64,000 bases of DNA, from positions 1,257,315 to 1,321,314 of the forward strand of contig CAWEUJ010000004.1 in assembly GCA_963812205.1 (NCBI GenBank), read 5' to 3'. A program made the position numbers and the translations under genes. Of the stretch, positions 4,029-22,346 are shown piece after piece. The notes below the pieces were generated by a model, which saw only the letters and a list, made by a program, of their open reading frames with translations, made no database searches and was not told where the DNA came from. Source of the stretch: an uncultured Actinomycetes bacterium. Its GTDB lineage: Bacteria; Actinomycetota; Acidimicrobiia; IMCC26256; PALSA-610. Numbering within the stretch: position 1 is the stretch's first letter; each line of letters opens with the position of its first letter.

Positions 4029-4424
4029 CTAGGCGGGGCTGAACCAAAGGAGCCCGACGGTGTCGGAAGCGTGCTCGATCTCGACGACGACGGGGAGATC
4101 GAGCACCAATTCGGACGGTTCGAGACCGCGCAGGTTGCCCACCAGCCGCGGGCCCTCTTCCAGCTCGACGACCAGGATCGCGTACGGCGGGGTGAACGCG
4201 GGATCGACGGCCCGGTGGGTGACGGTCCACGAGTAGACGTGGCCGCGCCCCGTTGCGGGTTCCCACGTCACGTCGTGCGAGCCGCAATGGGCGCAACGAA
4301 GGCGCGGCGGGTGGCGCCAGGTGTTGCACGCGGAACACCGCTGCAGCCGCAACTCGCCCCGGGCCAAGAACGCGTAGAACTCCCCGTTGAGCCCGAACGC
4401 GGCCGGCAACAAGCGATCGCTCAT
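4029..4424 (-). CDS. DUF35 OB-fold / Zn-ribbon protein (thiolase partner)
   Basis: The internal start [10 protein letters not shown]... sits 4 nt into the thiolase stop (ATGA overlap). It has the CxxC...CxxC ribbon ([20 protein letters not shown]) followed by an OB-fold-like segment. Confidence 0.8.
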
Positions 4425-9840: not shown

Positions 9841-9993
9841 CGGGTCCCCCTGCACCGTGCCGCTCGCCACATCGAGGCGAGTCGACGAGTCGGCTTCCCT
9901 CTTCAATTTCGGACGGGCGAGACCGACGCTTGATGAGCTCCGGGTGCCTCGAACGGGTGATATTTGCCCTCGCACGCGGCTGGTATGGTGGTA

Positions 9994-10033: not shown

Positions 10034-11263
10034 GTGGTCATGACCGACTTCACGCTCGATCTCAACGAGGATCAGCAGCAGATCCAGAAATGGGTCCACG
10101 ACTTCGCCGCCGACGTCATTCGACCCGCCGGGCCCGAATGGGACGAGCGCGAAGAGACGCCGTGGCCGATCATCGAAGAGGCCGCTCGCATCGGCCTTTA
10201 CTCGTGGGAGTTCCTCGCCAACGCGTTCAGTGACAAGACGGGGCTGACGCTCGCGCTCGTGTCGGAGGAGCTCGCCTGGGGCGACGCGGGCATCACGCTC
10301 GCGCTCCTCGGTACCAGCCTGGGTGTGTCGGGGATCGTCGGCAGCGGTACGCCCGAGCAGGTCGCGGAGTGGGTGCCGCAATGCTTCGGCACCGCCGACG
10401 ATCTGCGCATGGCCGCGTTCGCGGTGAGCGAACCCGACGCCGGCTCAGACGTGTCGGGACTGCGCACGCGCGCCGTCTACGACGAAGCCAAAGACGAGTG
10501 GGTCATCAACGGCGCGAAGACGTGGATCACCAACGGCGGCATCACCAAGGTGCCGACGATCCACGTGGTGGTCGCGTCGGTCGATCCCGAGTTGAAGAGT
10601 CGCGGTCACGCGTCGTTCGTCGTGCCCGCCGGCACGCCCGGCGTGAGCATGGGCCAGAAGTTCAAGAAGATGGGCATCCGAGCGTCACACACGGCTGAAG
10701 TCGTGTTCGACGACGTGCGCATCCCCGGCGCGTGCCTCCTCGGCGGCAAGGAGAAGCTCGACTCCCGCCTCGCGCGTGCCCGCGAGGGCAAGAGCTCGCG
10801 CGTGCAGGCCGCGATGAGCACGTTCGAAGCGTCGCGTCCGATGGTGGGCGCGCAGGCGCTCGGCATCGCCCGCGCCGCGTACGAGTACTCGCTCGACTAC
10901 GCCAAGGAACGCCAGGCCTTCGGGCGGCCGATCATCATGAACCAGGCGATCGCGTTCAAGCTCGCCGACATGAAGATGCACATCGACGCGGCCCGACTCC
11001 TCGTCTGGCGCGCGTGCTGGATGGCCGCGAACGGCAAGCAGTTCCACGCCGGCGAGGGCTCGATGTCGAAGCTGTACGCGGGCGAGACCGCAGTCAAGGT
11101 GACCGAGGACGCGATCCAGATCCTCGGCGGCGCCGGCTACGTGCGCGAGCACCCGGTCGAGCAGTGGCACCGCGACTCGAAGATCTACACGATCTTCGAG
11201 GGGACCTCGGAGATCCAGCGACTCGTCGTCGCCCGGAGCATCAGCGGCCTGCACATTCCGTAG
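10034..11263 (+). CDS. Acyl-CoA dehydrogenase family protein
   Basis: 409 aa with typical ACAD N-, middle- and C-domain pattern (...AFAVSEPDAGSDVSGL...WITNGG...YTIFEGTSEIQRLVVAR). The start is GTG 10034 or ATG 10040. Confidence 0.9.
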   Translation: MVMTDFTLDLNEDQQQIQKWVHDFAADVIRPAGPEWDEREETPWPIIEEAARIGLYSWEFLANAFSDKTGLTLALVSEELAWGDAGITLALLGTSLGVSGIVGSGTPEQVAEWVPQCFGTADDLRMAAFAVSEPDAGSDVSGLRTRAVYDEAKDEWVINGAKTWITNGGITKVPTIHVVVASVDPELKSRGHASFVVPAGTPGVSMGQKFKKMGIRASHTAEVVFDDVRIPGACLLGGKEKLDSRLARAREGKSSRVQAAMSTFEASRPMVGAQALGIARAAYEYSLDYAKERQAFGRPIIMNQAIAFKLADMKMHIDAARLLVWRACWMAANGKQFHAGEGSMSKLYAGETAVKVTEDAIQILGGAGYVREHPVEQWHRDSKIYTIFEGTSEIQRLVVARSISGLHIP

Positions 11264-11359
11264 CGACGAGCGGCCTTCAGGACCGACGAGGTACGCGCCG
11301 CCACACCGCCGTCGTTGTTCGTTCCGCTCGGCGAGTGCCGATCGACCTCGCGCTCGATG

Positions 11360-11698
11360 TCAGTCTGTGTGAGGCAACTCGGCCGCGGGACCAATCGCCG
11401 CAGGCGCGACCGACACGGGCGGTGCCGTGCTCGGAACCGTTGCGACGGGGTGCACGGAAACCTGAAGGCGAGTCGTGTGTGATGCGCGCGTGGTTGCGAC
11501 GCGTTCCGGTCGCGGCGCCACGGCAGGAGTGTCGGTCGGTGCCGGGGTGTCCGTCGTGACCGCGGGCGCTCGCACCGCAATCGTGTGTCCGTGGGTAGGA
11601 CGGTCGACCACGACCAACGCCATGACGATGCATGCCGCAATGACGGATACGAGCCACCAAGGAAATCGCTGTCGCCGGTGTTGGCGTGAGGTCGCCAT
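11360..11698 (-). CDS. Hypothetical single-pass membrane protein with a Pro/Thr/Ala-rich tail
   Basis: The internal start gives MATSRQHRRQRFPWWLVSVIAACIVMALVVV (TM helix) followed by a low-complexity PT-rich region. It is co-directional with and downstream of the cupredoxin gene. No recognisable domain. Confidence 0.35.
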   Translation of the reverse strand: MATSRQHRRQRFPWWLVSVIAACIVMALVVVDRPTHGHTIAVRAPAVTTDTPAPTDTPAVAPRPERVATTRASHTTRLQVSVHPVATVPSTAPPVSVAPAAIGPAAELPHTD

Positions 11699-11794
11699 AG
11701 CCGCACCATCCTGCACGATCCCGACCTGACGGGCAACTGTCACGGGACCGGGCAAGAACTCCCGAGGGCTGCGAGGGAGTCTGAAGGGGCGTCG

Positions 11795-12382
11795 CTACTG
11801 GACTGTGAGTTGCGCATACATCCCGGCCGCATAGTGACCGGGGAGATTGCAGATCAGTTCGTAACGACCGGGTGCGAGCGAAACGGTCAGCCAACTGGAG
11901 TCGCCGGGAGCAATCCCGTCACCGGCTCCCGGGCCGCAGCTGTTGGACGCCTCGCCGAGGCTCCCCCGCTCGTCGACGCTACCGTCGCCCAGCAGCGACC
12001 GGGTGCCGACGATCTGCTTGTCGGGCAGTGGGAGCACCAGCAGTTCGTGGTTGATCGAGCCGGCGTTGGTCGCGACGAACGAGATCGATCCGTGCGGAAC
12101 CGTCGCCGTGTCCACGCTGAGTCGCATCATTCCTCCGCGCGCGTTGCCGCCTCCCATCATCGGCCCACCGAACATCGGCCCACCGGCGTTCGTGAGCGTG
12201 ACGTGTACGACGGTTCCCGACAGGTTCGGCACCGTGCACCCTGTCGAGGGTGAAGCACCCGCGCCGAAGAAGTCGCGGTGGCGGTCGAACCCGCCCCGGG
12301 CGCCCGCGATGGCGATCGTGCTGATCGCCGCGAGCAACACCACGATGCCGGCACCGACCGCGATCACCAGAGGGCGGCGCAC
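11795..12382 (-). CDS. Membrane-anchored cupredoxin (type-1 copper site) protein
   Basis: It has the C-terminal ligand set H...CNLPGHYAAGM (Cys, His, Met) plus an upstream INHELLVLP His. There is an N-terminal TM segment (VRRPLVIAVGAGIVVLLAAISTIAIAG). The start is taken as the in-frame GTG at 12382, just after the SHOCT stop. The ORF track runs to 12571. Confidence 0.7.
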   Translation of the reverse strand: MRRPLVIAVGAGIVVLLAAISTIAIAGARGGFDRHRDFFGAGASPSTGCTVPNLSGTVVHVTLTNAGGPMFGGPMMGGGNARGGMMRLSVDTATVPHGSISFVATNAGSINHELLVLPLPDKQIVGTRSLLGDGSVDERGSLGEASNSCGPGAGDGIAPGDSSWLTVSLAPGRYELICNLPGHYAAGMYAQLTVQ

Positions 12383-12386
12383 GATG

Positions 12387-12629
12387 TCAACGCCCCCGGA
12401 GCAGGTCGCGTCGGCGGGTGTACTCGTCGGCGTCGATCTCGCCACGCGCGAAGCGCTCGTCGAGAATCCGTGTCGCGTCGTCGTGCGGTCGCGCGCTCGG
12501 GCCGGCCCCGTGTCCGTGGTCGGTGCGCACCAGGGCAATGATCGCCGCGACGACGATCGCCCAGAAGACAACCATCACGAACGCCATCGCCACCCATGCG
12601 CCTGCACCCCAACTGTCATGCCACCTCAT
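12387..12629 (-). CDS. SHOCT-domain small membrane protein
   Basis: 80 aa. It has an N-terminal TM helix and a C-terminal ILDERFARGEIDADEYTRRRDLL, which is the SHOCT motif. Confidence 0.7.
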   Translation of the reverse strand: MRWHDSWGAGAWVAMAFVMVVFWAIVVAAIIALVRTDHGHGAGPSARPHDDATRILDERFARGEIDADEYTRRRDLLRGR

Positions 12630-12728: not shown

Positions 12729-14135
12729 TCAGCCGCGGGCGCAGGACGCGCCGAGAGTGCGATCGTCGTTGGTCCACCCGGGCGACTGGGTATCGGGCCA
12801 GTAGTCGCCGGTGTGCTCGTCTTGTCGGTAGCCGACCGGTGCGGGCGAACCGCCGGCGAGTTCGGTGATGGCCTCGATGAGGCGGTCGATGTCGGCGGGA
12901 GAAGTCGAGATGCCCGCGCTGGCTCGTACGGCGCCGGGCATCTCACGCCGGTCGTGGCGCAGGACCGCTTGGCGATACGCGTTCACTTCGTCGGCGGGGA
13001 GGTCGAGCAGGCGGAGCAGGTAGGGGTGCGCGCAGAAGCAGCCGTGCCGGACCCCGATGCCGTACTCCGCGCTGAGTCGAGCCGCGACGAGCGCGTGATG
13101 CATGCCATCGATGATGAACGTCGCGAGCGGCAACGTCTCCGTTTCGAGACCGGGCCCGAGCAGGCGGACGCCGGGTATCGCGCTGAGTCCGGAGCGGAGT
13201 TGCGCCGACAGTCCGCGGTCGTGTTGCTCGATCCAGGCCCACCCGATGCGTTCGATCTCGTCGATCGCCGCGTGCAGCGCGACCGCACCGACGACGTTCG
13301 GTGAGCCGGCCTCTTCGCGTTCGGGTGGGTCGGTCCAGACGACCTCTTCGAGGTCGACCAGATCGACTGCGCCGCCGCCGGCCAAGAATGGGTCTCCGTC
13401 GGCGAAGGCGCGACGCGGGCCGACGAGCGCGCCCGCGCCGAACGGTGCGTACATCTTGTGGCCGCTCCACGCGACGAAGTCGACCGAGGCCGGCAGGGCC
13501 CGATGGGGTGCGACTTGCGCGGCGTCGAGGAACACCGGAATGCCGCGTTCGTGCGCGGCGGTGACGATGTCGTCGATCGGCGGGAGCCAGCCCGTGACGT
13601 TCGACGCGCCGGTGATGGCCAAGAGCTTGGGTCGCGGTGTGACATCGAGCGCGGCGACGACCGCGTCGGTCCCGAAGGTTCCCTCGGGTGCACACTCGAC
13701 GAACCGCGGGCGGCTCGCGCGCGCCCACGGCAGGAGGTTTGCGTGGTGCTCGACCACGGTCGTGACCACGACGTCGTCCGGGCCGAGCCGGAGTCGGTAC
13801 GCGAGGTGATTGATCGCCTCGGTCGTGTTCCGGCAGATGATCGCGATGTCGTCGCCGTCTGCGGGCCGCCCCGCGAATCGGAGCATGGCCGATCGCGCTT
13901 GTTCGTACGCGTTCGTCGCGGTTCGCGACTTGTAGCCGGCGCCGCGGTGCACGCTCGAGTACCACGGCATGAAATCGTTCACCCGGGCGGCAACGGCCGG
14001 GAGCGCGCTCGTGGATGCCGCCGCGTCGAGATTGAGGTAGCGGCGCGCGACACCGTCGACGCACGGGACCTCCACGTCGTCACCCATGAGCTCGATCGGG
14101 AGTGTCGACTCGCCGCTGTCGGCGGGACCTGACAT
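12729..14135 (-). CDS. Aminotransferase class V (cysteine desulfurase-like, PLP-dependent)
   Basis: The internal start MSGPADSG shares its A with the stop of the upstream methyltransferase gene (TGATG). It has the fold-type I pattern and SGHKMYAPFGAGAL (PLP lysine). Confidence 0.8.
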   Translation of the reverse strand: MSGPADSGESTLPIELMGDDVEVPCVDGVARRYLNLDAAASTSALPAVAARVNDFMPWYSSVHRGAGYKSRTATNAYEQARSAMLRFAGRPADGDDIAIICRNTTEAINHLAYRLRLGPDDVVVTTVVEHHANLLPWARASRPRFVECAPEGTFGTDAVVAALDVTPRPKLLAITGASNVTGWLPPIDDIVTAAHERGIPVFLDAAQVAPHRALPASVDFVAWSGHKMYAPFGAGALVGPRRAFADGDPFLAGGGAVDLVDLEEVVWTDPPEREEAGSPNVVGAVALHAAIDEIERIGWAWIEQHDRGLSAQLRSGLSAIPGVRLLGPGLETETLPLATFIIDGMHHALVAARLSAEYGIGVRHGCFCAHPYLLRLLDLPADEVNAYRQAVLRHDRREMPGAVRASAGISTSPADIDRLIEAITELAGGSPAPVGYRQDEHTGDYWPDTQSPGWTNDDRTLGASCARG

Positions 14136-14743
14136 CACCGCGCTCCGGTCGGTCGAGTTGCTCGTACGAGTACGTCGATCGCCGTCTTCTCGCCGTCGTC
14201 GGTCTGCACGGGACGCGCGACGCGCGCCGCCTTCACGACCTCGAGCCCTTCGATCGCGGCGGTGACGTCGTCGGGTCCGTACAGCACCGCCGAGTCTTGG
14301 GGGCCTCCCCAACCCTCGGTCGGGTTCGTGATGTCGTGGCCGACCACGAGCAGCGTTCCGCCCGGTGCGACCGCGTCGGCGGCATGCCGCAACGCTCGCG
14401 AGATCGCCGTTCCCGGAAGATGCAGGTACATGACGATCACCAGGTCGAAGCCGGCCGCGGTCGGCGCGTACTCGGTGACGTCGGCGGTTTCCCATCGCAC
14501 CGATACGCCTCGCGCCTCGGCAAGGCGGTGCGCCTTGCCGAGACCGACGGCGGAGAAGTCGACACCGGTCACATTCCAGCCGCGTTCGGCGAGCCAGACC
14601 GCGTTGCGCCCTTCGCCGCACGCGAGATCGAGCGCGCGGCCGGGCGCGAGCCCTTCGACCTCGGCAACGAGGAACCGGTTCGGCTCAGCCGTCCACACCA
14701 GCTCGTCACCGGCGTAGCGCTCGTCCCATGCGTTGTGATCCAT
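14135..14743 (-). CDS. Class I SAM-dependent methyltransferase (TehB/TPMT-like)
   Basis: The start MDHNAWDERY overlaps the upstream stop (TGATG). It has the SAM motif I LDLACGEGRNAVWLAERGWNVTGVDFS and resembles the tellurite/thiopurine methyltransferase type. Confidence 0.75.
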   Translation of the reverse strand: MDHNAWDERYAGDELVWTAEPNRFLVAEVEGLAPGRALDLACGEGRNAVWLAERGWNVTGVDFSAVGLGKAHRLAEARGVSVRWETADVTEYAPTAAGFDLVIVMYLHLPGTAISRALRHAADAVAPGGTLLVVGHDITNPTEGWGGPQDSAVLYGPDDVTAAIEGLEVVKAARVARPVQTDDGEKTAIDVLVRATRPTGAR

Positions 14744-15093
14744 CACGACACCACGGGCGGAACGAACTCGTCGAATGCGGCCAACGCCCGCGGCCCGTAC
14801 ACGCTCGCCGGTCCGCCGCCCATGAGCAGGCTGACGGCCAGCACCTCGACCACTTCCTCGCGGCTCGCGCCCTTCTTCGCCGCACCTCGGGCGTGGTACG
14901 CGATGCACCCGTCGCACTGCTGGGAGACCGCGATCGCGAGTGCGACGAGCTCTTTGACGTGCGCGGGAAGTCGGCCGGGCGCGAGTGCCTTCTCGTGCAG
15001 CGCGCTGAAGTCGGCCCAGGCTTCGGGGATTGCATGTCGCAGCTCGCGCGTGGGTTCTCGGAGCTCGGATATGACGTCGTGGAAATGGGCCAT
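14743..15093 (-). CDS. Carboxymuconolactone decarboxylase family (AhpD-like) protein with a CxxC motif
   Basis: 116 aa. It has KELVALAIAVSQQCDGCIAYHARGA, the AhpD-like CxxC signature. Confidence 0.8.
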   Translation of the reverse strand: MAHFHDVISELREPTRELRHAIPEAWADFSALHEKALAPGRLPAHVKELVALAIAVSQQCDGCIAYHARGAAKKGASREEVVEVLAVSLLMGGGPASVYGPRALAAFDEFVPPVVS

Positions 15094-15129
15094 GGTGACG
15101 GACTCCTCTGCTTCAGCGACGCGTACTCG

Positions 15130-15399
15130 TCACGAGCTGCATCGTGGTGTGATCCCGAATCGCCGTGCAATCAGCGACGCCGGGCAGTTGCCGACCGCGA
15201 CGAAGATCCACTGGTTGATCCCCACGAAGGTAGTGAGCAGCAAGAACCAGGGGCTGACGGTCGCGGCGAGCAGAACGCTGAGCAATGTCATCGTTCCCGC
15301 CAGCGCGAAGAGGACTCGTTCGAGGGGCCACCTCGGAGCAACCGGCGAGTTGGGCCGGTGCGCGTCGGTGGCGGTGTCGAGTTCGGACAGGTGAGCCAT
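15130..15399 (-). CDS. DUF2892 (YgaP C-terminal-like) small membrane protein
   Basis: The internal start is MAHLSELD. It has two hydrophobic helices and the conserved ...GINQWIFVAVGNCPASLI pattern. Confidence 0.65.
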   Translation of the reverse strand: MAHLSELDTATDAHRPNSPVAPRWPLERVLFALAGTMTLLSVLLAATVSPWFLLLTTFVGINQWIFVAVGNCPASLIARRFGITPRCSS

Positions 15400-15421
15400 C
15401 GTGGATCCCTCCGTGGGTCGG

Positions 15422-17590
15422 TCAGTGACTGAAGTGGATATTGGGGAGGATGCGCTCGAGCCAGCGCGGGAGATACCAGTTGCGATCCCCGATGAGCGCC
15501 ATCGTCGCGGGGACGAGGAGTACCCGGACCACGGTTGCATCGAGGAGGACCGCCATCGCCAGGGTGAGGCCGAGCTCGGTCGGCGGTATGGGTCCGGTGA
15601 TGCCGAACGCGATGAACACGATGATCATGATCAACGCCGCGTTGGTGATGGGTCGACCGGTGCGGGCGATCCCTTCGCCGATGGCCCGGCGGGTGTCGCC
15701 GGTGGCTTCGTACCGTTCGCGGATCGCGGCGAGCAAGAAGAGCTGGTAGTCCATCGACAGGCCGAACAACAGAGCGAAGAAGAACAGTGGTGCCCAAGCG
15801 TCGACGAACGGTTGGTGCTGTATGCCGAGCAGCCCGGTACCGAAGCCGTGTTGGAAGACGAGGGTCGCGAACCCGAAGGCGGCGCCGACGGTCAGCAGGT
15901 TCATCAGGATCGAGGTGACCGCGATGACGAGGCTGCGGAAGACGATGAGCAGGAGAAGGAACGCGACGATCAGGATGATGCCGATCGCGTATGGAGCACG
16001 TCCGGTGAGCACCGCCGTGAGATCGCGGTTCTGCGCGGCCGGACCACCCACCTGCGCGCTGGGAACGGCCGTGGCGAGGCGGGCGCGCAACGTGTTGACG
16101 AGCGTTGCCGTGTGGGAGTCGTCGACCGGGGTCGAGCCGGTGACGCGTACGACGACGCGGCCCGTCGCTGCGGGCGCGGTGACGACGCGCGCATCGACCA
16201 CGCCCGCTACTGCGGCGGAGGTCCGGATGACGCCAGCCGCGTCGCCCGCCGGCGTGGTGACGAACGCCGGCGCTGCGGCACCGGGACCGAACGCGCCGAC
16301 CAGCATGTCGTAGCCGTCGCGGCTCGTGTTGCCCTTGTCGACCACGTGCGCGCCGGGCATGCCGAGATGCATACCGAGCGCGGGGGCGATGAGCGCGCCG
16401 AGCATGACGAGGCCGATGGCCAGCACCATCGCCGGTCGGCGCAGTGCAACGCCGGTCCACCGTTGCCAGCGGCTCTCGGCGGTGATGTCGGGATCCTCTG
16501 TGTTCTTGCGGACGAGCACGCGGTCGCCGAGACCGACGAGGAGCGCGGGCAACAGTGTGAGCGATGCCAGTGCGACGGCGACGACCGACAGGATCATCCC
16601 GAGCGCCATGGACCGGAAGACCATGACCGGGACGATGAATACCGCGGCGAGGGCCATGACGACGGTCAGCGCGGAGAGGAACACGGCCTTACCGGCCGTC
16701 GACATGGTGTTCTCGATCGCGGTGATCGCGTCCTTGCCTTCGGCGCGTTCCTCGCGGTAGCGACTGACGATGAACAAGCTGTAGTCGATGCCGACCGCCA
16801 GGCCGATCATCATCGAGAAGTTCATCGACCACACCGACAGCGGTGTGAACCATCCGAGGATGTGCAACAGCGCGAACCCGACGGCGATGCCGGCCAGCGC
16901 GAGCACCAACGGGAGGCCCGCCGCGATCAGCATGCCGAAGGCGACGAAGAGCAAGATCATCGTGGGTAGGCCGCTCACGAGCTCTGCCTTGTGCAGCGCC
17001 TCGGCGTTGATCTTGTTGAAGTCGCTCCAGACCGGCCATTCGCCGGTCACCTCTGCACGCGCGCCCGGAACCAGCGTCAGCTTGTGTACGTACGACCCGA
17101 GCTCACCTGCGGCGGCGGGTCGGTCTGCGTCTTTGTGCACGACCTGCGCGACCGGGATGAGCGCGGTGTGCCCGTCGGGTGATATCAGGCCGGCCGACGC
17201 CGGCAATGTGAGTGGGTTGGCGACGCCATTCGCGCGCGGCGCGTGCGCCAGCTGCGCCACGAGCTGCTGGAGCGGTGCCGGGTTCGTCGCGATCGGAGCC
17301 GCCTGGTGGTAGACGACGACCGGGTCTTCCGCTCCGAGTTGGGGGAAGTCACGGCGGATCTCGTCGCGCACCCGTTGCGCGGTCGAGCCCTGGGCCTCCC
17401 ACCCGGCACCGGAAAGCGCGCCGGTGAGCGTCAGCGCGAGGGGTGCGGCGGCGAACGCGAGGAGCAGCCAGACCGTGATGACGCTGCGCCGGCGGCGTGC
17501 CGAGAATGCCGCGAGGCGCGAGAACAGCGCCTTCGGGTCGGGCGGTCCCGACGGTTCGTGTCCGGTGACGATGTCGTGTGTGACGGTCAT
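15422..17590 (-). CDS. MMPL family (RND superfamily) transporter
   Basis: 722 aa from MTVTHDIV. It has 12-TM MMPL architecture with duplicated ...GIDYSLFIVSRYREE / GLSMDYQLFLLAAIRE motifs. Confidence 0.85.
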   Translation of the reverse strand: MTVTHDIVTGHEPSGPPDPKALFSRLAAFSARRRRSVITVWLLLAFAAAPLALTLTGALSGAGWEAQGSTAQRVRDEIRRDFPQLGAEDPVVVYHQAAPIATNPAPLQQLVAQLAHAPRANGVANPLTLPASAGLISPDGHTALIPVAQVVHKDADRPAAAGELGSYVHKLTLVPGARAEVTGEWPVWSDFNKINAEALHKAELVSGLPTMILLFVAFGMLIAAGLPLVLALAGIAVGFALLHILGWFTPLSVWSMNFSMMIGLAVGIDYSLFIVSRYREERAEGKDAITAIENTMSTAGKAVFLSALTVVMALAAVFIVPVMVFRSMALGMILSVVAVALASLTLLPALLVGLGDRVLVRKNTEDPDITAESRWQRWTGVALRRPAMVLAIGLVMLGALIAPALGMHLGMPGAHVVDKGNTSRDGYDMLVGAFGPGAAAPAFVTTPAGDAAGVIRTSAAVAGVVDARVVTAPAATGRVVVRVTGSTPVDDSHTATLVNTLRARLATAVPSAQVGGPAAQNRDLTAVLTGRAPYAIGIILIVAFLLLLIVFRSLVIAVTSILMNLLTVGAAFGFATLVFQHGFGTGLLGIQHQPFVDAWAPLFFFALLFGLSMDYQLFLLAAIRERYEATGDTRRAIGEGIARTGRPITNAALIMIIVFIAFGITGPIPPTELGLTLAMAVLLDATVVRVLLVPATMALIGDRNWYLPRWLERILPNIHFSH

Positions 17591-17607
17591 GGCGGTTGCT
17601 CCTGGAA

Positions 17608-18360
17608 CTAGAAGACGAGGCGGTAAGCGACGAACCAAAGCGAGAATGCGACGAGCAGCACGCCGAAGGCGCGTTGGAGGTGTTCGGTACGAATGTGTTG
17701 AGCCCGGTGACTCATCGCCCACGACGCGGGAACCGAGCCCAGGGCGAACACGAGCGCGGCCGCCCAGTCGATGTGGCCGAGAGCCCAATGCGTGATGAGC
17801 GTCGGGACCGTCAGTGCGGCGATGACGACGAGGCTCGTTCCCGACGCTTGGCGCATCGACAGGCCGAGGACGAGCAGGTACGCCGGGACGAGCAGGAAGC
17901 CGCCCCCGTTCGCGAGCAACCCGGTGAACAACCCGACCGCCGCCGCGATCGCGGTGATCAGCACCGGCCGGTCACGGCGAGCGGAGCCGGCCGCGAGGCT
18001 CGCGGCCGAGATCGGGCGCAGGACGCGCACACCGACGACGCCGAGCACGACGCCCGACGCGACGAGCAGGGCAGGACCACCGACCACTCGTGACAGGAGA
18101 GCCCCGACGATCGTCGCGGGGATGCCGCCGATGAGCGACCACCGGGCCACGTCGGCGTCGACCTCGCCGCGGCGTGCGTACTGTCGCGCACCTGCGAGCG
18201 CGGCCGGAATCGTCGCCGGCAGAGGCGACGCGATCGCGGCGAAGCCCGACAGCCCCAACAGCGACATGATCGGGGTCGCGAAGGAGGAGCCGCCGACGCC
18301 GAACAGACCGAAGAGCGCGCCGACCACCAGTCCTGCGACTCCGACTCCCGCCAGTTGCAC
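17608..18360 (-). CDS. TauE/SafE (DUF81) sulfite-exporter family membrane protein
   Basis: It shows a Gly-rich multi-TM pattern (GLFGVGGSSFATPIM...GLLANGGGFLLVPAYL). The start is taken as the in-frame GTG at 18360, after the DUF302 stop at 18371. Confidence 0.8.
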   Translation of the reverse strand: MQLAGVGVAGLVVGALFGLFGVGGSSFATPIMSLLGLSGFAAIASPLPATIPAALAGARQYARRGEVDADVARWSLIGGIPATIVGALLSRVVGGPALLVASGVVLGVVGVRVLRPISAASLAAGSARRDRPVLITAIAAAVGLFTGLLANGGGFLLVPAYLLVLGLSMRQASGTSLVVIAALTVPTLITHWALGHIDWAAALVFALGSVPASWAMSHRAQHIRTEHLQRAFGVLLVAFSLWFVAYRLVF

Positions 18361-18370
18361 GAAGTGCCCT

Positions 18371-18766
18371 TCAGCCGGCGGCGCGAACGCCGAGGACGTC
18401 GACGGCCGCTTGCAGCTTGCCGGCGGCCTCGTCGGCGAGGTCGCGAAAGCGCGGATCGTCCATGAGTTCGAGCGGGTCGACGATCCGCACGCGCGTTCCG
18501 CCCTCGGTCGACTCGAGCACGACGTTGCACGGCAGGAGGAGCGCGACCGACGGGTCGATCTCGAGCGCACGGTGCGCGAGGGTGGGATTGCACGCGCCGA
18601 GGATCTTCAGCGGCGGGCGATCGACGCCCAGCTTCGCTTTCAACGTCGCGGCGACGTCGATCTCGGTGAGTACGCCGAAGCCCTGCGCACCGAGCGACTC
18701 GCGGATCGCGTGCTCGGCATCGGCGAGGGTCATCGCCACGGTGGTCTCGAAGGAGCGCATCATCAT
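18371..18766 (-). CDS. DUF302 domain protein
   Basis: The start MMMRSFETTV overlaps the CsoR-like stop (ATGA). GFGVLTEIDV...KILGACNP...LPCNVVL is the DUF302 signature. Confidence 0.8.
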   Translation of the reverse strand: MMMRSFETTVAMTLADAEHAIRESLGAQGFGVLTEIDVAATLKAKLGVDRPPLKILGACNPTLAHRALEIDPSVALLLPCNVVLESTEGGTRVRIVDPLELMDDPRFRDLADEAAGKLQAAVDVLGVRAAG

Positions 18767-19032
18767 GCCAACTTCAAGAACATGCGCTCGACGTCGTCGA
18801 GCGCGTAACCGTCTGCTTCGGCTTCTTCGGGTCGCTCGACGCAAAACGCGAGCCCGGCCGCGACCAACTTGAAGCCGGCCTGTTCGAGCGCTTTCGTCGC
18901 AGCCGAGATCTGGACCACGACCTCGCGACATTCACGCCCTTCCGACAGCATGCGCTCGACTGCTTGCACCTGGCCCGCGGCGCGCCGTAGTCGCTTGCGG
19001 ACGTCGTCGACGACGTTCTCGGGAATCTCCAT
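18763..19032 (-). CDS. CsoR/RcnR (DUF156) family repressor, CstR-like (two Cys, no His ligand)
   Basis: 89 aa from MEIPENVVDDVRKRLRRAAGQVQAVERML, with AAGGAGGA RBS upstream. Cys35 and Cys64 are present, but the position four residues before Cys64 is Gly rather than the Cu(I)-ligand His of CsoR. Confidence 0.8.
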   Translation of the reverse strand: MEIPENVVDDVRKRLRRAAGQVQAVERMLSEGRECREVVVQISAATKALEQAGFKLVAAGLAFCVERPEEAEADGYALDDVERMFLKLA

Positions 19033-19049
19033 CGGGTCCTCCTTGCCGC

Positions 19050-20141
19050 TCAGGCAGAGCAGCGGTTGGGACCGACCTCGAGTCGCTGGAGTTCCACCAG
19101 CGACAGCGGGGAGCGGCCCATGTTCGCGTTGATGATCTCGGCGTAGTTCGGTGGCCTCGGGGTAGTGCGTGCGACCGCCCATTCGACGAACCGGGCTTCG
19201 TCGAGCGCGAGGGACGGCAATGCGGCCCGCAACCGGCCGAGGCTGGTACCGACCGGCTCGGCCGGGGTGACGCGAACCCCGTCGCCGTAGTGGCCGGGAA
19301 GGACGAGCGTGTCGTCGGCCAGCGTGAGCACGCGTTCGTGCAGCGACCGATACAGGTTGTGCGCGAACTCCTCGGCGCGCTCGGCCAGATCGGGGCGGCC
19401 GACGCCGTCGACGAACAACGTATCGCCCGTCAACACGACGCGATCGCCCACGAAGTAGATCGTCGAGCCCTGGGTGTGGCCGGGCGTACGCAACGCGGCG
19501 ACCGACAGCTCGATGTCGGCGCCGAGAGGGAAACGATCCCCATCGTGGAGGGCTTCGTACGCGAAGTCGAACGTGTCGGCCGGGTTGAGGTGCAGCGACG
19601 CGTCCGAGCGCTCAGCGAGCGCGCGGGCCCCGGAGAGGTGATCGGCATGCAAGTGCGTGTCGAACACATGGCTGATTCGCCAGCCGTGCTCGGTCGCGAT
19701 CTCCGTGTAGACGTCGATATCGATCGACGGATCGATCACGAAGGCTTCGTCGCCGCCGACGGCACCGATGACGTACGAAAGACACCCTTTGCCGCGGCGC
19801 CGTGCCTGCACGATCCGAATGTCATCCAGTTCGACGACCACCCAGTCGTAGGTCGCGCCCCAGGCCACCATTCCGCCCCGGAGATTGGCGACCCGCCGGC
19901 CCTGAGCGGCGACGAAGTCGGCCGCCTGCGACGAACGGCTCCCCGAGGCGCACACCACGACGATCTCGCGGTCGCGTGGGAGCTCGTCGATGCGACCCGG
20001 GAGCAGGCCGATCGGGATGTTCTTCGAGCCGGGAATCGCCCATTCGGCGGCCTCGCTCGGTTCGCGCACGTCGAGTACGAGCGGTTCGTCGTCCGTCCCC
20101 AACCGCGCCGCCAGCTCGGCCGCGTCTATGTCTCGGTACAT
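19050..20141 (-). CDS. Rhodanese-MBL fold fusion (persulfide dioxygenase-sulfurtransferase, CstB/ETHE1-like)
   Basis: 363 aa from MYRDIDAAEL, with GGGGAG RBS. It has the rhodanese active-site loop CASGSRS and the MBL motif THLHADHLSG. Confidence 0.85.
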   Translation of the reverse strand: MYRDIDAAELAARLGTDDEPLVLDVREPSEAAEWAIPGSKNIPIGLLPGRIDELPRDREIVVVCASGSRSSQAADFVAAQGRRVANLRGGMVAWGATYDWVVVELDDIRIVQARRRGKGCLSYVIGAVGGDEAFVIDPSIDIDVYTEIATEHGWRISHVFDTHLHADHLSGARALAERSDASLHLNPADTFDFAYEALHDGDRFPLGADIELSVAALRTPGHTQGSTIYFVGDRVVLTGDTLFVDGVGRPDLAERAEEFAHNLYRSLHERVLTLADDTLVLPGHYGDGVRVTPAEPVGTSLGRLRAALPSLALDEARFVEWAVARTTPRPPNYAEIINANMGRSPLSLVELQRLEVGPNRCSA

Positions 20142-20198
20142 CTGAGTACTCCCCGATCGAGGTGACCGCGACGGCTTCTGTGGGGTGTTCCGAGCGGA

Positions 20199-20234
20199 TA
20201 CACCGCCGTGTAACCAGTATACCCCGGGGGGTAT
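20199..20234. promoter_or_regulatory. CsoR/CstR-type operator: ATACCCC-GG-GGGGTAT (20219-20234) plus degenerate TACACCGCCGTGTA (20199-20212)
   Basis: A G/C-tract flanked by an ATAC/GTAT inverted repeat is the described architecture of CsoR-family operators. It lies 58-93 nt upstream of the rhodanese-MBL start, in the divergent intergenic region. Confidence 0.6.
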
Positions 20235-20518
20235 TCCGGAGGGCTCTCGAATCTCACGGCTTCGCGCCCACGGGTCGCGTCGCGGGCAAGGGCGCGGCAG
20301 GAGCCGCGCCGAGGGACGGGGTCGATCTCGCCGGGAGTCACTGATGAGGCCATCGAGTCGATCTTCCCCGGACCCGGCCGCTCCGAACACCCGCGAAGGT
20401 CGTACGTGTGCGGCCGAAGGTCCCGCGTGCCTCGGGCGGCAGCGGCAGGGCCGAACGTCCGCTGCGGCGGAGGCGCACGTCCCTAGGCGGCCCTGGGCCG
20501 GTCGGCCACGCTGAGGTC

Positions 20519-21652
20519 GTGACGTTCGTCGGTCTCGTCCTGCACAACGTGCTCCGCCGCCGCATGCGCGCGGTCGTGACCGCGATCGCCGTTGCGATCG
20601 GTGTGACCGCGGTCCTCACCCTCGGGGTCCTGACCACGTCGCTGCGCCAGACGGCCGTCGCCATCCTCCGGACCGGGAACGCCGACTTCAGCGTGTCGCA
20701 GAAGGGCGCGTCGGACATCCTCTACAGCGCGCTCTCGCAGGGCGACATCGACACCCTGCGTGCCACCCCCGGCGTGGAGGCCGCGACGGGGGTGTTCGTC
20801 GCGACCGGGAAGATCAACGCCAAGCACCCGTTCTTCATCGAGATCGGGATCCGCACGGCCGACCAACCCGAGTTCGGCGTGACGGTGCTGACCGGCCGTT
20901 CGTACCGCGAGACGGCGTCGAGCGCGCAGGGTACCGGTGAGATGATGCTCGGGTATCGCGCCGCGAAGGACTTCGGTGTCCGCGTCGGCGACACGTTCGC
21001 GGTCGAAGAGCGCAAGTTCCGCGTCGTCGGCCTCTTCTCGACCGGAAACGTCTTCGGTGACGCGGCCGGAATGTTCCCGCTCACCGACCTGCAGGGGTGG
21101 CATCGTCAGCCGGGCGTGTACACGCTCGCGTTCGTCCGGGCCCGGCCGAACGTCTCCATTCCCGATCTCCGCCGTCGCATCGAGAACGCCAGCCCGCGGC
21201 TCGCGACCGCACGCAGTGAGAGTGACTACGGGCGCGTCGACCGGAACCTCGTCCTGATCACCGCCGCGAACGTGGGAGGGTCGATCCTCGCGCTCTTCAT
21301 CGGCGCGACGGGTGTGATGAACACGTCGCTGCTGTCGTTCTACGAGCGCCTGCGGGAGTTCGGTCTGCTCCGCGCCGTCGGGTGGAACCGGCGGCGAGTC
21401 TTCCGCCTGGTGCTGGGTGAGGCGCTGATCGTCAGTCTCGTCGGAGCCGGCGCGGGCATCGGTATCGGCTTGGGCGCGATCCAGGTGCTCACGCACGTGG
21501 ACGCGCTGGTGGGCGTGTTCCAGCCCGTGTACGAGGCGTGGCTCTTCGGCCGCGCGCTCCTGTTCGCGTTCGCGATGGCGATTCTCGGCGCCCTGTACCC
21601 GGCCGTGCGCGCCGCCATGCTCACACCTCTGTCGGCGCTCCAGCATGAGTGA
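20519..21652 (+). CDS. ABC transporter permease, FtsX/MacB-like
   Basis: It has an N-terminal TM, a large periplasmic domain and a C-terminal FtsX 3-TM module (LREFGLLRAVGW). The start is taken as the GTG at 20519, 2 nt after GAGG. The ORF track starts at 20408. Confidence 0.75.
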   Translation: MTFVGLVLHNVLRRRMRAVVTAIAVAIGVTAVLTLGVLTTSLRQTAVAILRTGNADFSVSQKGASDILYSALSQGDIDTLRATPGVEAATGVFVATGKINAKHPFFIEIGIRTADQPEFGVTVLTGRSYRETASSAQGTGEMMLGYRAAKDFGVRVGDTFAVEERKFRVVGLFSTGNVFGDAAGMFPLTDLQGWHRQPGVYTLAFVRARPNVSIPDLRRRIENASPRLATARSESDYGRVDRNLVLITAANVGGSILALFIGATGVMNTSLLSFYERLREFGLLRAVGWNRRRVFRLVLGEALIVSLVGAGAGIGIGLGAIQVLTHVDALVGVFQPVYEAWLFGRALLFAFAMAILGALYPAVRAAMLTPLSALQHE

Positions 21653-22346
21653 TCGTCCCGTTCCCGCGCTCGAGTTGATCGACGTCGTGAAGTCGTACGG
21701 CGGCGGTCGCGGGGTCGTGCTCGATGGCGTCTCGCTCACTGTCGGCCCGGGCGAGTTCGTGGTGATGGTCGGCCCGTCGGGGGGTGGGAAGTCGACCGCG
21801 CTGCACCTGATCGCGGCGCTCGACCGCCCGAACTCGGGAACCATCCGCGTCCACGGTCGCGACCTCGCCCACGGCCGCCACTTGGACCGCTACCGCCGCC
21901 AGGAGATCGGGCTCGTCTTCCAACTCCACAACCTTCTCCCGCACCTCGATGCGCGCCAGAACGTCGAGATCGTCATGCTCGGGACGAGGACACACCGGGG
22001 TGCTCGCCGCGCGCGTGCAGTCGCGCTGCTCGACCGGGTGGGCCTCGGGCGCCAGGCCCGCGTGCGCCCACCCGAGCTGTCCGGCGGTGAACGTCAGCGC
22101 ATCGCAGTGGCACGCGCCTTCGCCAATCAGCCCAGGCTCGTCCTGGCGGACGAACCGACCGGCAGCCTCGACGAGGAGAGCGGCACCGCGGTGATCGCGA
22201 TGCTGAGGTCGTGTTGCGACGAGGGCGGCGCGGTACTGGCGGTGAGTCACGATCCCCGGCTCACCGCCGCGGCCGACCGCGTCGTGCGGCTCGCGGACGG
22301 CCGCATTCACCCGGTCGGGGGCGCGCAGGCTCCGATCGCGCGCTGA
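21645..22346 (+). CDS. ABC transporter ATP-binding protein (MacB/LolD type)
   Basis: It has Walker A GPSGGGKST, signature LSGGERQR and Walker B LVLADEPT. It overlaps the permease stop by 8 nt. Confidence 0.9.
   Translation: MSDRPVPALELIDVVKSYGGGRGVVLDGVSLTVGPGEFVVMVGPSGGGKSTALHLIAALDRPNSGTIRVHGRDLAHGRHLDRYRRQEIGLVFQLHNLLPHLDARQNVEIVMLGTRTHRGARRARAVALLDRVGLGRQARVRPPELSGGERQRIAVARAFANQPRLVLADEPTGSLDEESGTAVIAMLRSCCDEGGAVLAVSHDPRLTAAADRVVRLADGRIHPVGGAQAPIAR

Follow-up and report, generated by a model that had tools for sequence, protein, structure and literature searches.

The reference model for the sensing and disposal of sulfide-derived reactive sulfur in Gram-positive bacteria is the CstR-type regulon, for which oxidation to sulfite or thiosulfate and TauE-mediated export have been described as outputs. 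Here we describe a locus in a 64 kb stretch of DNA from an uncultured bacterium of the Acidimicrobiia (contig CAWEUJ010000004.1; the whole stretch is called the window below, and positions are counted from its first letter) in which genes of this kind stand together with a transporter of the MMPL family, part of the resistance-nodulation-division (RND) superfamily, and a small membrane protein of the DUF2892 type. The nine genes between positions 12729 and 20141 form one apparent operon, which appears to be an unusually complete member of a widespread and seemingly undescribed CstR-MMPL-DUF2892 module. No report of an MMPL in a persulfide or CstR regulon came up in full-text literature searches, in agreement with a preliminary description of the window that had called an MMPL inside a reactive-sulfur cluster an undescribed arrangement.

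Among the systems already described, the ScCsoR circuit of Streptomyces coelicolor (csoR, pdo-tauE and rhod; PMC7533328) shares with this locus a two-cysteine repressor with a 29-residue spacing between its cysteines and an operator of the form ATACC-N6-GGTAT that often occurs in tandem. This circuit and the "cluster 3" CstRs (PMC8643695) also share the targets, a persulfide dioxygenase (PDO)-rhodanese and TauE, and the position of the regulator inside the cluster that it regulates. The window differs in that the genes are gathered in one nine-gene operon, that the rhodanese lies N-terminal to the PDO, and that the MMPL, DUF2892, DUF302, AhpD, methyltransferase and SufS-like proteins are added; the described ScCsoR circuit does not include the MMPL, which is the most constant target here. 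The cst operon of Staphylococcus aureus (cstR, tauE, cstA, cstB, sqr) and the CstR operons of Enterococcus faecalis and streptococci likewise have an x-C-x-C repressor, sulfurtransferases, CstB, a TauE-type exporter and a similar GC-rich palindromic operator. They contain no RND/MMPL, DUF2892, AhpD, methyltransferase or PLP (pyridoxal phosphate) protein, they belong to another phylum with another low-molecular-weight thiol background, and in CstB the domain order is opposite to the rhodanese-PDO order found here. A further comparison is offered by the "SUL" modules of Arthrobacter plasmids, which combine a CsoR-family regulator, a small hypothetical protein, two rhodaneses, a sulfur dioxygenase, TauE, DUF302 and a second transporter; that transporter is a major facilitator superfamily protein rather than an MMPL, and the modules were described by annotation only (PMC6305408).

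Gene models in the window were built from the frame profile of third-position GC content (GC3) together with open reading frame (ORF) calls, and domains were assigned with Pfam and NCBIfam; the window is 69% GC and its raw ORF list is rich in spurious frames. In the GC3 profile, minus-strand coding runs unbroken from about 20141 to 12729, where nine co-directional genes (G1 to G9) are transcribed from 20141 towards 12729. These genes, a possible tenth gene and the operator are as follows:

20219 to 20234, no strand: CstR/CsoR-family operator ATACCCCGGGGGGTAT, a palindrome of the form ATACC-N6-GGTAT, 78 nt 5' of the G1 ATG
19050 to 20141, minus strand: G1, rhodanese plus metallo-beta-lactamase (MBL) protein, 363 aa (Pfam Rhodanese 4.7e-17, Lactamase_B 3.9e-19)
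18763 to 19032, minus strand: G2, CsoR-family repressor with a CstR-type fingerprint (Pfam PF02583, Trns_repr_metal, 1.5e-19)
18371 to 18766, minus strand: G3, DUF302 protein, 131 aa (Pfam 6.9e-24)
17608 to 18360, minus strand: G4, TauE/SafE-family anion (sulfite) exporter, 250 aa, GTG start (Pfam 5.1e-42)
15422 to 17590, minus strand: G5, MMPL (RND superfamily) transporter, 722 aa (Pfam MMPL 7.8e-76)
15130 to 15399, minus strand: G6, DUF2892/YgaP-TM-like two-helix membrane protein, 89 aa (weak Pfam match)
14743 to 15093, minus strand: G7, AhpD/CMD-family protein, 116 aa (Pfam CMD 1.3e-20)
14135 to 14746, minus strand: G8, small class-I S-adenosylmethionine-dependent methyltransferase, TehB/TPMT-like, 203 aa (Pfam TehB, TPMT)
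12729 to 14138, minus strand: G9, SufS/CsdA-like class-V PLP enzyme, 469 aa (Pfam Aminotran_5 6e-74)
11795 to 12571, minus strand: G10, possible tenth gene, membrane-anchored sulfocyanin-like cupredoxin (Pfam SoxE 2.7e-5, Copper-bind 2.1e-4)

The junctions from G1 to G9 measure, in order, 17, −4, 10, 17, 22, 36, −4 and −4 nt, and the three overlapping ones read cATGAtg, gTGATGg and gTGATGt. The gaps of 17, 22 and 36 nt and the overlaps ATGA, TGATG and TGATG are thus exactly those that the preliminary description had reported, and its co-directional array and gene order are borne out by the GC3 frames and the ORF calls on the minus strand. Its figure of ten genes was a miscount, since nine lie within 12729 to 20141 and the tenth co-directional gene, G10, lies outside this interval. 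Pfam confirms eight of its domain calls; the DUF2892 call falls below the Pfam cut-off and is backed instead by similarity to RefSeq DUF2892 proteins, as detailed below. Ribosome-binding sites precede G2, G5 and G6, and G8 begins with GTG, with an ATG 3 nt further on. The gap between G9 and G10 is about 154 nt, and the start of G10 is uncertain. A terminator scan placed no hit between the genes and three minus-strand hits inside coding sequences (five in total against 3.4 expected), a sigma-70 promoter scan returned zero sites, and Rfam gave zero matches between 11000 and 21500. Because the intergenic gaps are at most 36 nt, there is no space for separate internal promoters, and the nine genes have the appearance of a single operon.

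The site upstream of G1 is a perfect palindrome, ATACCCC-N2-GGGGTAT, at 20219 to 20234, and is the only match in the window when up to 2 mismatches are allowed (0.03 expected). A weaker candidate for a second site, TTACACGGCGGTGTAT, lies at about 20198 to 20213, some 21 nt downstream of the perfect site, with 4 mismatches; it is a degenerate TACAC-N4-GTGTA repeat and may be a second operator. On the other side, an FtsX-type ABC permease and its ATPase (20408 to 22346, plus strand) diverge from the operator-bearing intergenic region. The ATACC-N6-GGTAT form is that of the site of ScCsoR, a sensor of sulfane sulfur (PMC7533328), and of the core of the Streptococcus mitis cst operator (PMC8643695). 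By the x-C-x-C motif of the regulator, proteins are recognised as candidate persulfide sensors, among them those of the large actinomycete "cluster 3" (PMC8643695), and the motif and the site together define the actinomycete CstR group (PMC8643695, PMC7533328).

G2 belongs to the CsoR/RcnR fold family PF02583 (70.6 bits against a cut-off of 22.8). In an alignment to copper-CsoR structures and PDB 7mq1, its fingerprint residues are Cys35, Gly60, which takes the place of the His that binds Cu(I) in CsoR, and Cys64. The 7mq1 chain was deposited as "csoR", and we take it for the CstR of E. faecalis described in PMC8643695. The spacing of 29 residues between Cys35 and Cys64 is that of the CstR dithiols (PMC7533328, PMC8643695). 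Because Gly replaces the copper-ligand His, we read G2 as having the fingerprint of a CstR, with two Cys and no His, rather than that of a copper-sensing CsoR.

The operator form is common to copper-CsoR and RicR sites, and a cupredoxin with features of type-1 copper proteins recurs near the MMPL. G10 carries the type-1 copper motif C-x2-P-G-H-x4-M. Homologs of it occur no more than 10 kb from the MMPL in 6 of 80 loci, a related cupredoxin family is found in 11 loci, and one homolog adjoins a CstR (L084). In Mycobacterium bovis, moreover, MmpS6/MmpL6 have been linked to CsoR/RicR copper responses (PMC9048740). The locus could on these grounds be taken for a copper-responsive CsoR regulon in which the MMPL and G10 serve copper homeostasis and the sulfur genes are bystanders. 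This is very unlikely, and we reject it, since the regulators lack the His ligand: every MMPL-linked homolog of G2 in which the site is intact has the C-G-x-C form (the copy in L013 is truncated), and the sole copper-type C-H-H-C paralog (L011) lies 6 kb from the MMPL with no such operator nearby. Nor is there a CopA- or CopZ-like family among the annotated recurrent neighbours, which are PDO, rhodanese, TauE and SQR-like proteins.

How far the operator belongs to the MMPL was seen in other genomes. An exact-sequence look-up of G5 gave no match, and homologs were used instead; the closest are 77% to 92% identical and come nearly all from metagenome-assembled genomes (MAGs) of Acidimicrobiia. 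A scan of GTDB species representatives yielded 80 MMPL loci at 68% to 98% identity, against which ten window proteins were searched with tblastn. In 62 of the 80, the 400 nt before the MMPL start contain the operator (up to 2 mismatches allowed), typically at a distance of 35 to 135 nt. Three loci have no upstream sequence, and in the other 15 the motif heads a co-directional string containing the MMPL in all but one (L004). The exact sequence ATACCCCNNGGGGTAT occurs in 47 of 82 loci. Tandem operator pairs, about 22 to 35 bp apart, are frequent (L016 to L081; for example at 4103 and 4136 in L018 and at 9885 and 9918 in L025), and the operators of the S. coelicolor pdo promoter are likewise tandem (PMC7533328). 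At several loci, among them L030, L043, L047 and L050, the operator and the MMPL stand without any other recognisable sulfur gene nearby. Because the operator is tied to it in nearly all loci, the MMPL is the most constant operator-controlled gene of the regulon and the core of the module. It is thus not an add-on that "extends" a sulfur-detoxification cluster, as the preliminary description had put it, and the lineage of the window appears to have merged it into a larger operon under a single operator.

Around this core the sulfur genes recur in varying company. The families represented in the window are found near the MMPL as follows:

CsoR-family gene (C-G-x-C), within 3 kb of the MMPL: 38 of 80 loci
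DUF2892 gene, immediately downstream of the MMPL on the same strand: 31 of 74 loci
DUF302 gene, within 3 kb: 17 loci
AhpD gene, within 3 kb: 16 loci
rhodanese-MBL gene, within 3 kb: 14 loci
G8-type methyltransferase gene, within 3 kb: 12 loci
TauE gene, within 3 kb: 11 loci
SufS-like gene, within 3 kb: 5 loci

Further neighbour families were obtained by clustering ORFs and naming the clusters with Pfam, and only clusters that Pfam could name were used, as spurious ORFs had merged others. By this route we found CstB-like PDOs with two rhodanese domains (18 loci), a second and a third family of class-I methyltransferases (12 and 4 loci), sulfocyanin-like cupredoxins (11), an LPG-synthase-TM protein (10), a SHOCT membrane protein (8), thioredoxin (8) and an SQR-like flavoprotein (5). 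Shorter versions of the window order are seen in L004 (G2-G5-G6-G7-G8-G9), L006 and L076 (G1 to G8, then G10), L009 (G2-G3-G5-G6-G8-G9) and L010 (G5 directly followed by G9). Genes of the first half of the array and genes of the second half occur together in 23 of the 80 loci, and homologs of G9, of AhpD and of the methyltransferase occur in CstR contexts without an MMPL; the halves, whose linkage in other genomes the preliminary description had singled out for checking, are therefore linked outside the window as well. Several MAG records in this set are titled "Bifidobacterium breve", "Bifidobacterium sp." or "Bifidobacteriaceae" (L025, L030, L031, L053, L060 and L079); their MMPLs are 71% to 79% identical and lie in the same context, and these taxonomic labels look wrong.

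The module also reaches beyond the Acidimicrobiia. A tblastn search against plasmids found MMPLs at 36% to 42% identity in 59 records, mainly from Rhodococcus, where the RefSeq annotation of the genes is generic only. On pRHL3 of Rhodococcus jostii RHA1 (RHA1_RS43875 to RS43925) the order is MBL/PDO, thioredoxin, CMD, rhodanese, MMPL, "metal-sensitive regulator", DUF2892, DUF302, TauE and MBL/PDO. The regulator gene and the rhodanese-MMPL unit each have the same operator in front, as does the MBL/PDO gene at the start of the order, and before the second MBL/PDO gene there is a variant with one mismatch. The regulator (WP_041813759.1) is of the C-G-x-C type, and the MMPL has 722 aa and no Cys. 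The operator, the C-G-x-C regulator and the Cys-free MMPL are found both in RHA1 and on a plasmid of R. qingshengii (37% to 41% identity), and the MMPL-regulator-DUF2892 set is recognised by gene content only on pNF2 of Nocardia farcinica and pR8L1 of Rhodococcus sp. 008. In the last of these a divergent unit of DUF2892, DUF5313 and methyltransferase genes lies beside the MMPL. As the same arrangement is present on these Rhodococcus and Nocardia plasmids, the module spans two classes of Actinomycetota. Plasmid copies (L086 to L089; L088 is N. farcinica pNF2, 10370 to 11769) lie near integrase, alkylmercury lyase and MerR genes, and the adjoining mobile-element and mercury-resistance genes suggest that the module is horizontally mobile.

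This distribution bears on a further account of the window, in which independent modules have come to lie side by side by chance: a CstR/PDO/TauE module, a lipid-type MMPL with no relation to it, and an AhpD/methyltransferase/desulfurase block that is likewise unrelated. The exact nine-gene order is found only in the window and in L003, and the surroundings of the MMPL are highly variable in gene content, both of which would favour this account. Yet wherever upstream sequence is available, the operator goes with the MMPL at essentially every locus, the same families recur in many orders across the two classes, and the short gaps within the array leave no room for separate promoters. We regard chance juxtaposition as already largely refuted and give it hardly any credence.

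The transporter at the center of the module is matched by Pfam MMPL in two stretches (255.6 bits), and its nearest structures are MmpL3 entries (201 bits). With MmpL3 and other MMPL/HAE2 RND transporters it shares the two MMPL repeats and the Asp-Tyr pairs of transmembrane helices 4 and 10, which form the proton relay (D269-Y270 and D614-Y615 in G5) and are invariant among its homologs. It is not an ortholog of MmpL3, the trehalose monomycolate exporter, as it reaches 238 bits against a cut-off of 1400 in the NCBIfam equivalog. Unlike MmpL3, it is free of cysteine, has no C-terminal domain, is paired with DUF2892 rather than MmpS, and stands under a CstR-type operator. By these sequence features G5 is assigned to a paralogous MMPL clade of the MmpL3-like class without the C-terminal domain. 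No Cys is present in 117 of 120 G5 homologs, where about 7 residues would be expected from the roughly 1% Cys of ORFs in the window. G4 (TauE) has zero Cys as well, and every soluble or small partner of G4 and G5 keeps a conserved Cys, unlike both transporters.

Among these partners is G6, whose score against Pfam PF11127 (DUF2892/YgaP-TM) is 17.8 bits, below the cut-off of 25.3; it is 42% to 51% identical to RefSeq "DUF2892 domain-containing" proteins in the syntenic Rhodococcus and Nocardia loci, and its homolog in L084 carries PF11127. Cys72, in a CPAS motif, is invariant, Cys87 is conserved, and the positive-inside rule predicts that this pair is cytoplasmic. In Azospira a DUF2892 gene was induced about 10-fold by H2S, among the most strongly induced transcripts (PMC5358917). 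G6 resembles a stand-alone equivalent of the membrane domain of YgaP, and in RHA1 the rhodanese gene overlaps the MMPL start and DUF2892 follows the regulator, such that the two halves of YgaP flank the pump. YgaP of Escherichia coli is a rhodanese fused to a DUF2892 two-helix anchor and is encoded in the sulfide-responsive ygaVP operon. G6 differs from it in being unfused to a rhodanese, in its Pfam match below threshold and in its conserved CPAS...C cysteine pair.

The first half of the array contains parts of known type. In G1 the rhodanese is N-terminal and an MBL-fold persulfide dioxygenase is C-terminal. The closest structures to its MBL domain are the PDO-rhodanese fusions 3tp9 and BpPRF (5ve3), the CstB-like 3r2u and ETHE1. 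Its translation contains the metal motif HxHxDH (HLHADH) and a rhodanese loop C64-ASGS-R (C64-x4-R). These features identify G1 as a predicted persulfide dioxygenase-rhodanese fusion of the CstB/BpPRF/Blh type; it falls short of the Blh equivalog model (51 bits against 625). G3 has two conserved cysteines, Cys59 and Cys80, and its closest solved structure is TT1751 (1j3m, 7.7e-31).

The second half consists of genes that appear to be accessory to the module. G7 scores 50.3 against a cut-off of 27.8 in TIGR00778 (ahpD domain), it matches the AhpD of PDB 5dik (2.2e-22), and its motif C60-D-G-C63-I-A-Y-H67 (CxxCxxxH) is at least 90% conserved. G8 exceeds the Pfam thresholds for both TehB (PF03848, 40.7 bits against 20.4, covering positions 24 to 134 of 193) and TPMT (34.2 bits against 26), and UbiG models are also matched; against the TehB equivalog models it reaches 41.6 to 46.5 bits, far below the cut-offs of 218 to 303. 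Its nearest structure is the uncharacterised Slr1183, followed by TehB structures, and we take it to have a TehB-like fold without being a TehB ortholog. Both G7 and G8 match the NCBIfam models of methyltransferase-AhpD fusion selenoproteins, MduS (NF045649) and ArsM_AhpD_UU (NF041537), G8 matching the methyltransferase part and G7 the AhpD part, which supports a functional pairing of these neighbouring, overlapping genes. The coupling of AhpD and methyltransferase, for which the preliminary description had seen no precedent, thus has one, with the differences that here the genes are separate, Cys takes the place of selenocysteine, and the scores are far below the family cut-offs.

G9 keeps the PLP Lys (SGHKM) and a catalytic Cys369 (HGCFC369AHP, aligned with GHHCA of the cysteine desulfurase 8odq), and carries a C-terminal extension of about 45 aa whose last residue is Cys. 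It does not qualify as an equivalog of SufS or CsdA (258 against 475 in TIGR01979; 172 to 175 against 607 to 661 in the SufS and CsdA equivalogs). No acceptor of the SufE, SufU or CsdE families was seen in the array with Pfam; instead of a dedicated acceptor of the SufE type, the constant upstream neighbour of G9-type genes is an AhpD-like gene. The same holds away from any MMPL, where the AhpD-like gene lies directly upstream of G9 homologs (L083, L084). Such MMPL-free homologs stand among CstR, DUF2892, G8-type methyltransferase, DUF302, thioredoxin and DsrE/DsrC genes (L084, L085), and operators head those units; because the CstR and operator contexts persist without the MMPL, the genes of the second half belong to the same regulatory world. 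An apparent 664-aa fusion of a methyltransferase and a SufS-like protein in L085 (P0151, 1954 to 3948) was dropped, as its Arg-rich residues from about 166 to 202 match neither G8 nor G9, and it is most likely an assembly frameshift. In L084 (12904 to 15341) a second AhpD/CMD gene is strung together with DsrE-like, DsrC-like and pyridine-nucleotide-disulfide oxidoreductase genes, which suggests that, in Acidimicrobiia, this small AhpD clade partners sulfur-trafficking proteins in general.

The families of the second half invite a reading in terms of selenium and tellurium, with G9 as a selenocysteine lyase, G7 reducing or carrying the chalcogen, G8 methylating it and the MMPL exporting the product. 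It draws on the TehB and TPMT matches of G8, on the fusion selenoprotein models matched by G7 and G8, and on the match of G9 to the model of the selenocysteine lyase SclA (2.8e-36), together with the name "selenocysteine lyase/cysteine desulfurase" that sources give to G9 homologs. CstR of S. aureus reacts with selenite and tellurite in vitro, which would also favour it. We nevertheless judge it decidedly unlikely. The scores of G8 are nowhere near the TehB equivalog cut-offs and its nearest structure is Slr1183; methyltransferase and SufS-like genes are accessory (12 to 15 and 5 to 6 of 80 loci, respectively), whereas the constant partners are sulfur genes; no selenium-specific gene such as SelD was seen in the array; and the role is argued only from the family resemblance of accessory genes.

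Methylation could instead act on sulfur itself. Cytoplasmic methyltransferases of about 205 to 210 aa, MddM1 and MddM2, methylate H2S and methanethiol, are induced by H2S and are widespread in Actinomycetota (PMC12904073). By analogy, sulfide or persulfide would be detoxified by conversion to methanethiol, dimethyl sulfide or dimethyl polysulfides, and the MMPL would export the methylated products, which are hydrophobic. The size of G8 (203 aa) and its matches to UbiG and TPMT models fit this, as does the recurrence of three unrelated class-I methyltransferase families beside the MMPL (12 to 15, 12 and 4 loci), with a fourth example divergent to the MMPL in Rhodococcus sp. 008. It is unlikely as an account of the module, in that most MMPL loci have no methyltransferase and would be left unexplained, and methanethiol and dimethyl sulfide diffuse freely and need no pump.

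We therefore return to persulfide, and consider it probable, though well short of certain, that the nine genes form a G2-repressed persulfide-response operon whose new core, MMPL and DUF2892, exports hydrophobic sulfur species. The reactive-sulfur role of the array as such is well supported by its gene content and operator. In this scheme G2 would repress its own operon through the ATACCCC-N2-GGGGTAT site upstream of G1. When persulfides or polysulfides derived from sulfide accumulate, Cys35 and Cys64 would be cross-linked, by analogy with characterised CstRs, and G2 would leave the DNA, allowing the set to be expressed. G1 would then oxidise thiol persulfide to sulfite and G4 would export the sulfite, both being parts of known type. 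The new part would be the conserved core, in which the Cys-free, proton-driven, MmpL3-like G5 works with the dithiol of G6 to remove hydrophobic or membrane-partitioning sulfur species that lie beyond the reach of TauE. G3, G7, G8 and G9 would be lineage-specific additions that probably accept, reduce or methylate sulfane sulfur.

That a second species is exported is implied by the constant control of the MMPL by the operator, by its presence as a second transporter beside TauE and by the loss of all its cysteines. Zero-valent sulfur and organic or methylated polysulfanes would be the likeliest substrates of G5. MmpL3-type transporters draw their substrates from the membrane, and for this reason hydrophobic sulfane sulfur (S8, organic or methylated polysulfanes) is favoured and is our best guess, by analogy, for what the pump carries. 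A more specific proposal, which we make tentatively and regard as doubtful, is that the Cys-free MMPL and the DUF2892 dithiol protein constitute a dedicated, CstR-controlled exporter of zero-valent (sulfane) sulfur, with S8, or organic or methylated polysulfanes, pulled from the membrane or passed on by a cytoplasmic cysteine relay of rhodanese, DUF302 and AhpD.

Several points weigh against the persulfide-response scheme. Because the operator form is common to copper-sensing CsoR proteins, the assignment of the inducer depends entirely on the fingerprint of G2 and its neighbourhood. Lipids and siderophores are the precedents for RND/MMPL substrates, and a pump may be unnecessary for small sulfur species. 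The 120 homologs in the cysteine survey are phylogenetically related, and the background for it was taken from ORFs of the window and not from unrelated MMPLs. The full nine-gene order is found in one other genome (L003, MMPL 98% identical), so the exact combination could be recent and partly fortuitous, and the association of first-half and second-half genes (odds ratio 10, p = 0.02, in loci with full flanks) carries no phylogenetic correction.

If the scheme holds, the consequences extend beyond this one genome. That an MMPL and a small dithiol membrane protein are the genes most constantly linked to the operator implies a further exported product outside current models of CstR regulons. As R. 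jostii RHA1 carries the module and is genetically tractable, the question of what a persulfide-induced MMPL exports can be tested directly. The module also places four little-understood families (DUF2892, DUF302, the small AhpD clade and the SufS-like clade) in a physiological context, and does the same for one clade within the MMPL family, which is of medical importance. If the exported species were indeed sulfane sulfur, this would be the first sulfane-sulfur efflux system to be identified, and would add to sulfide detoxification an arm, conserved across Actinomycetota, that had gone unrecognised.

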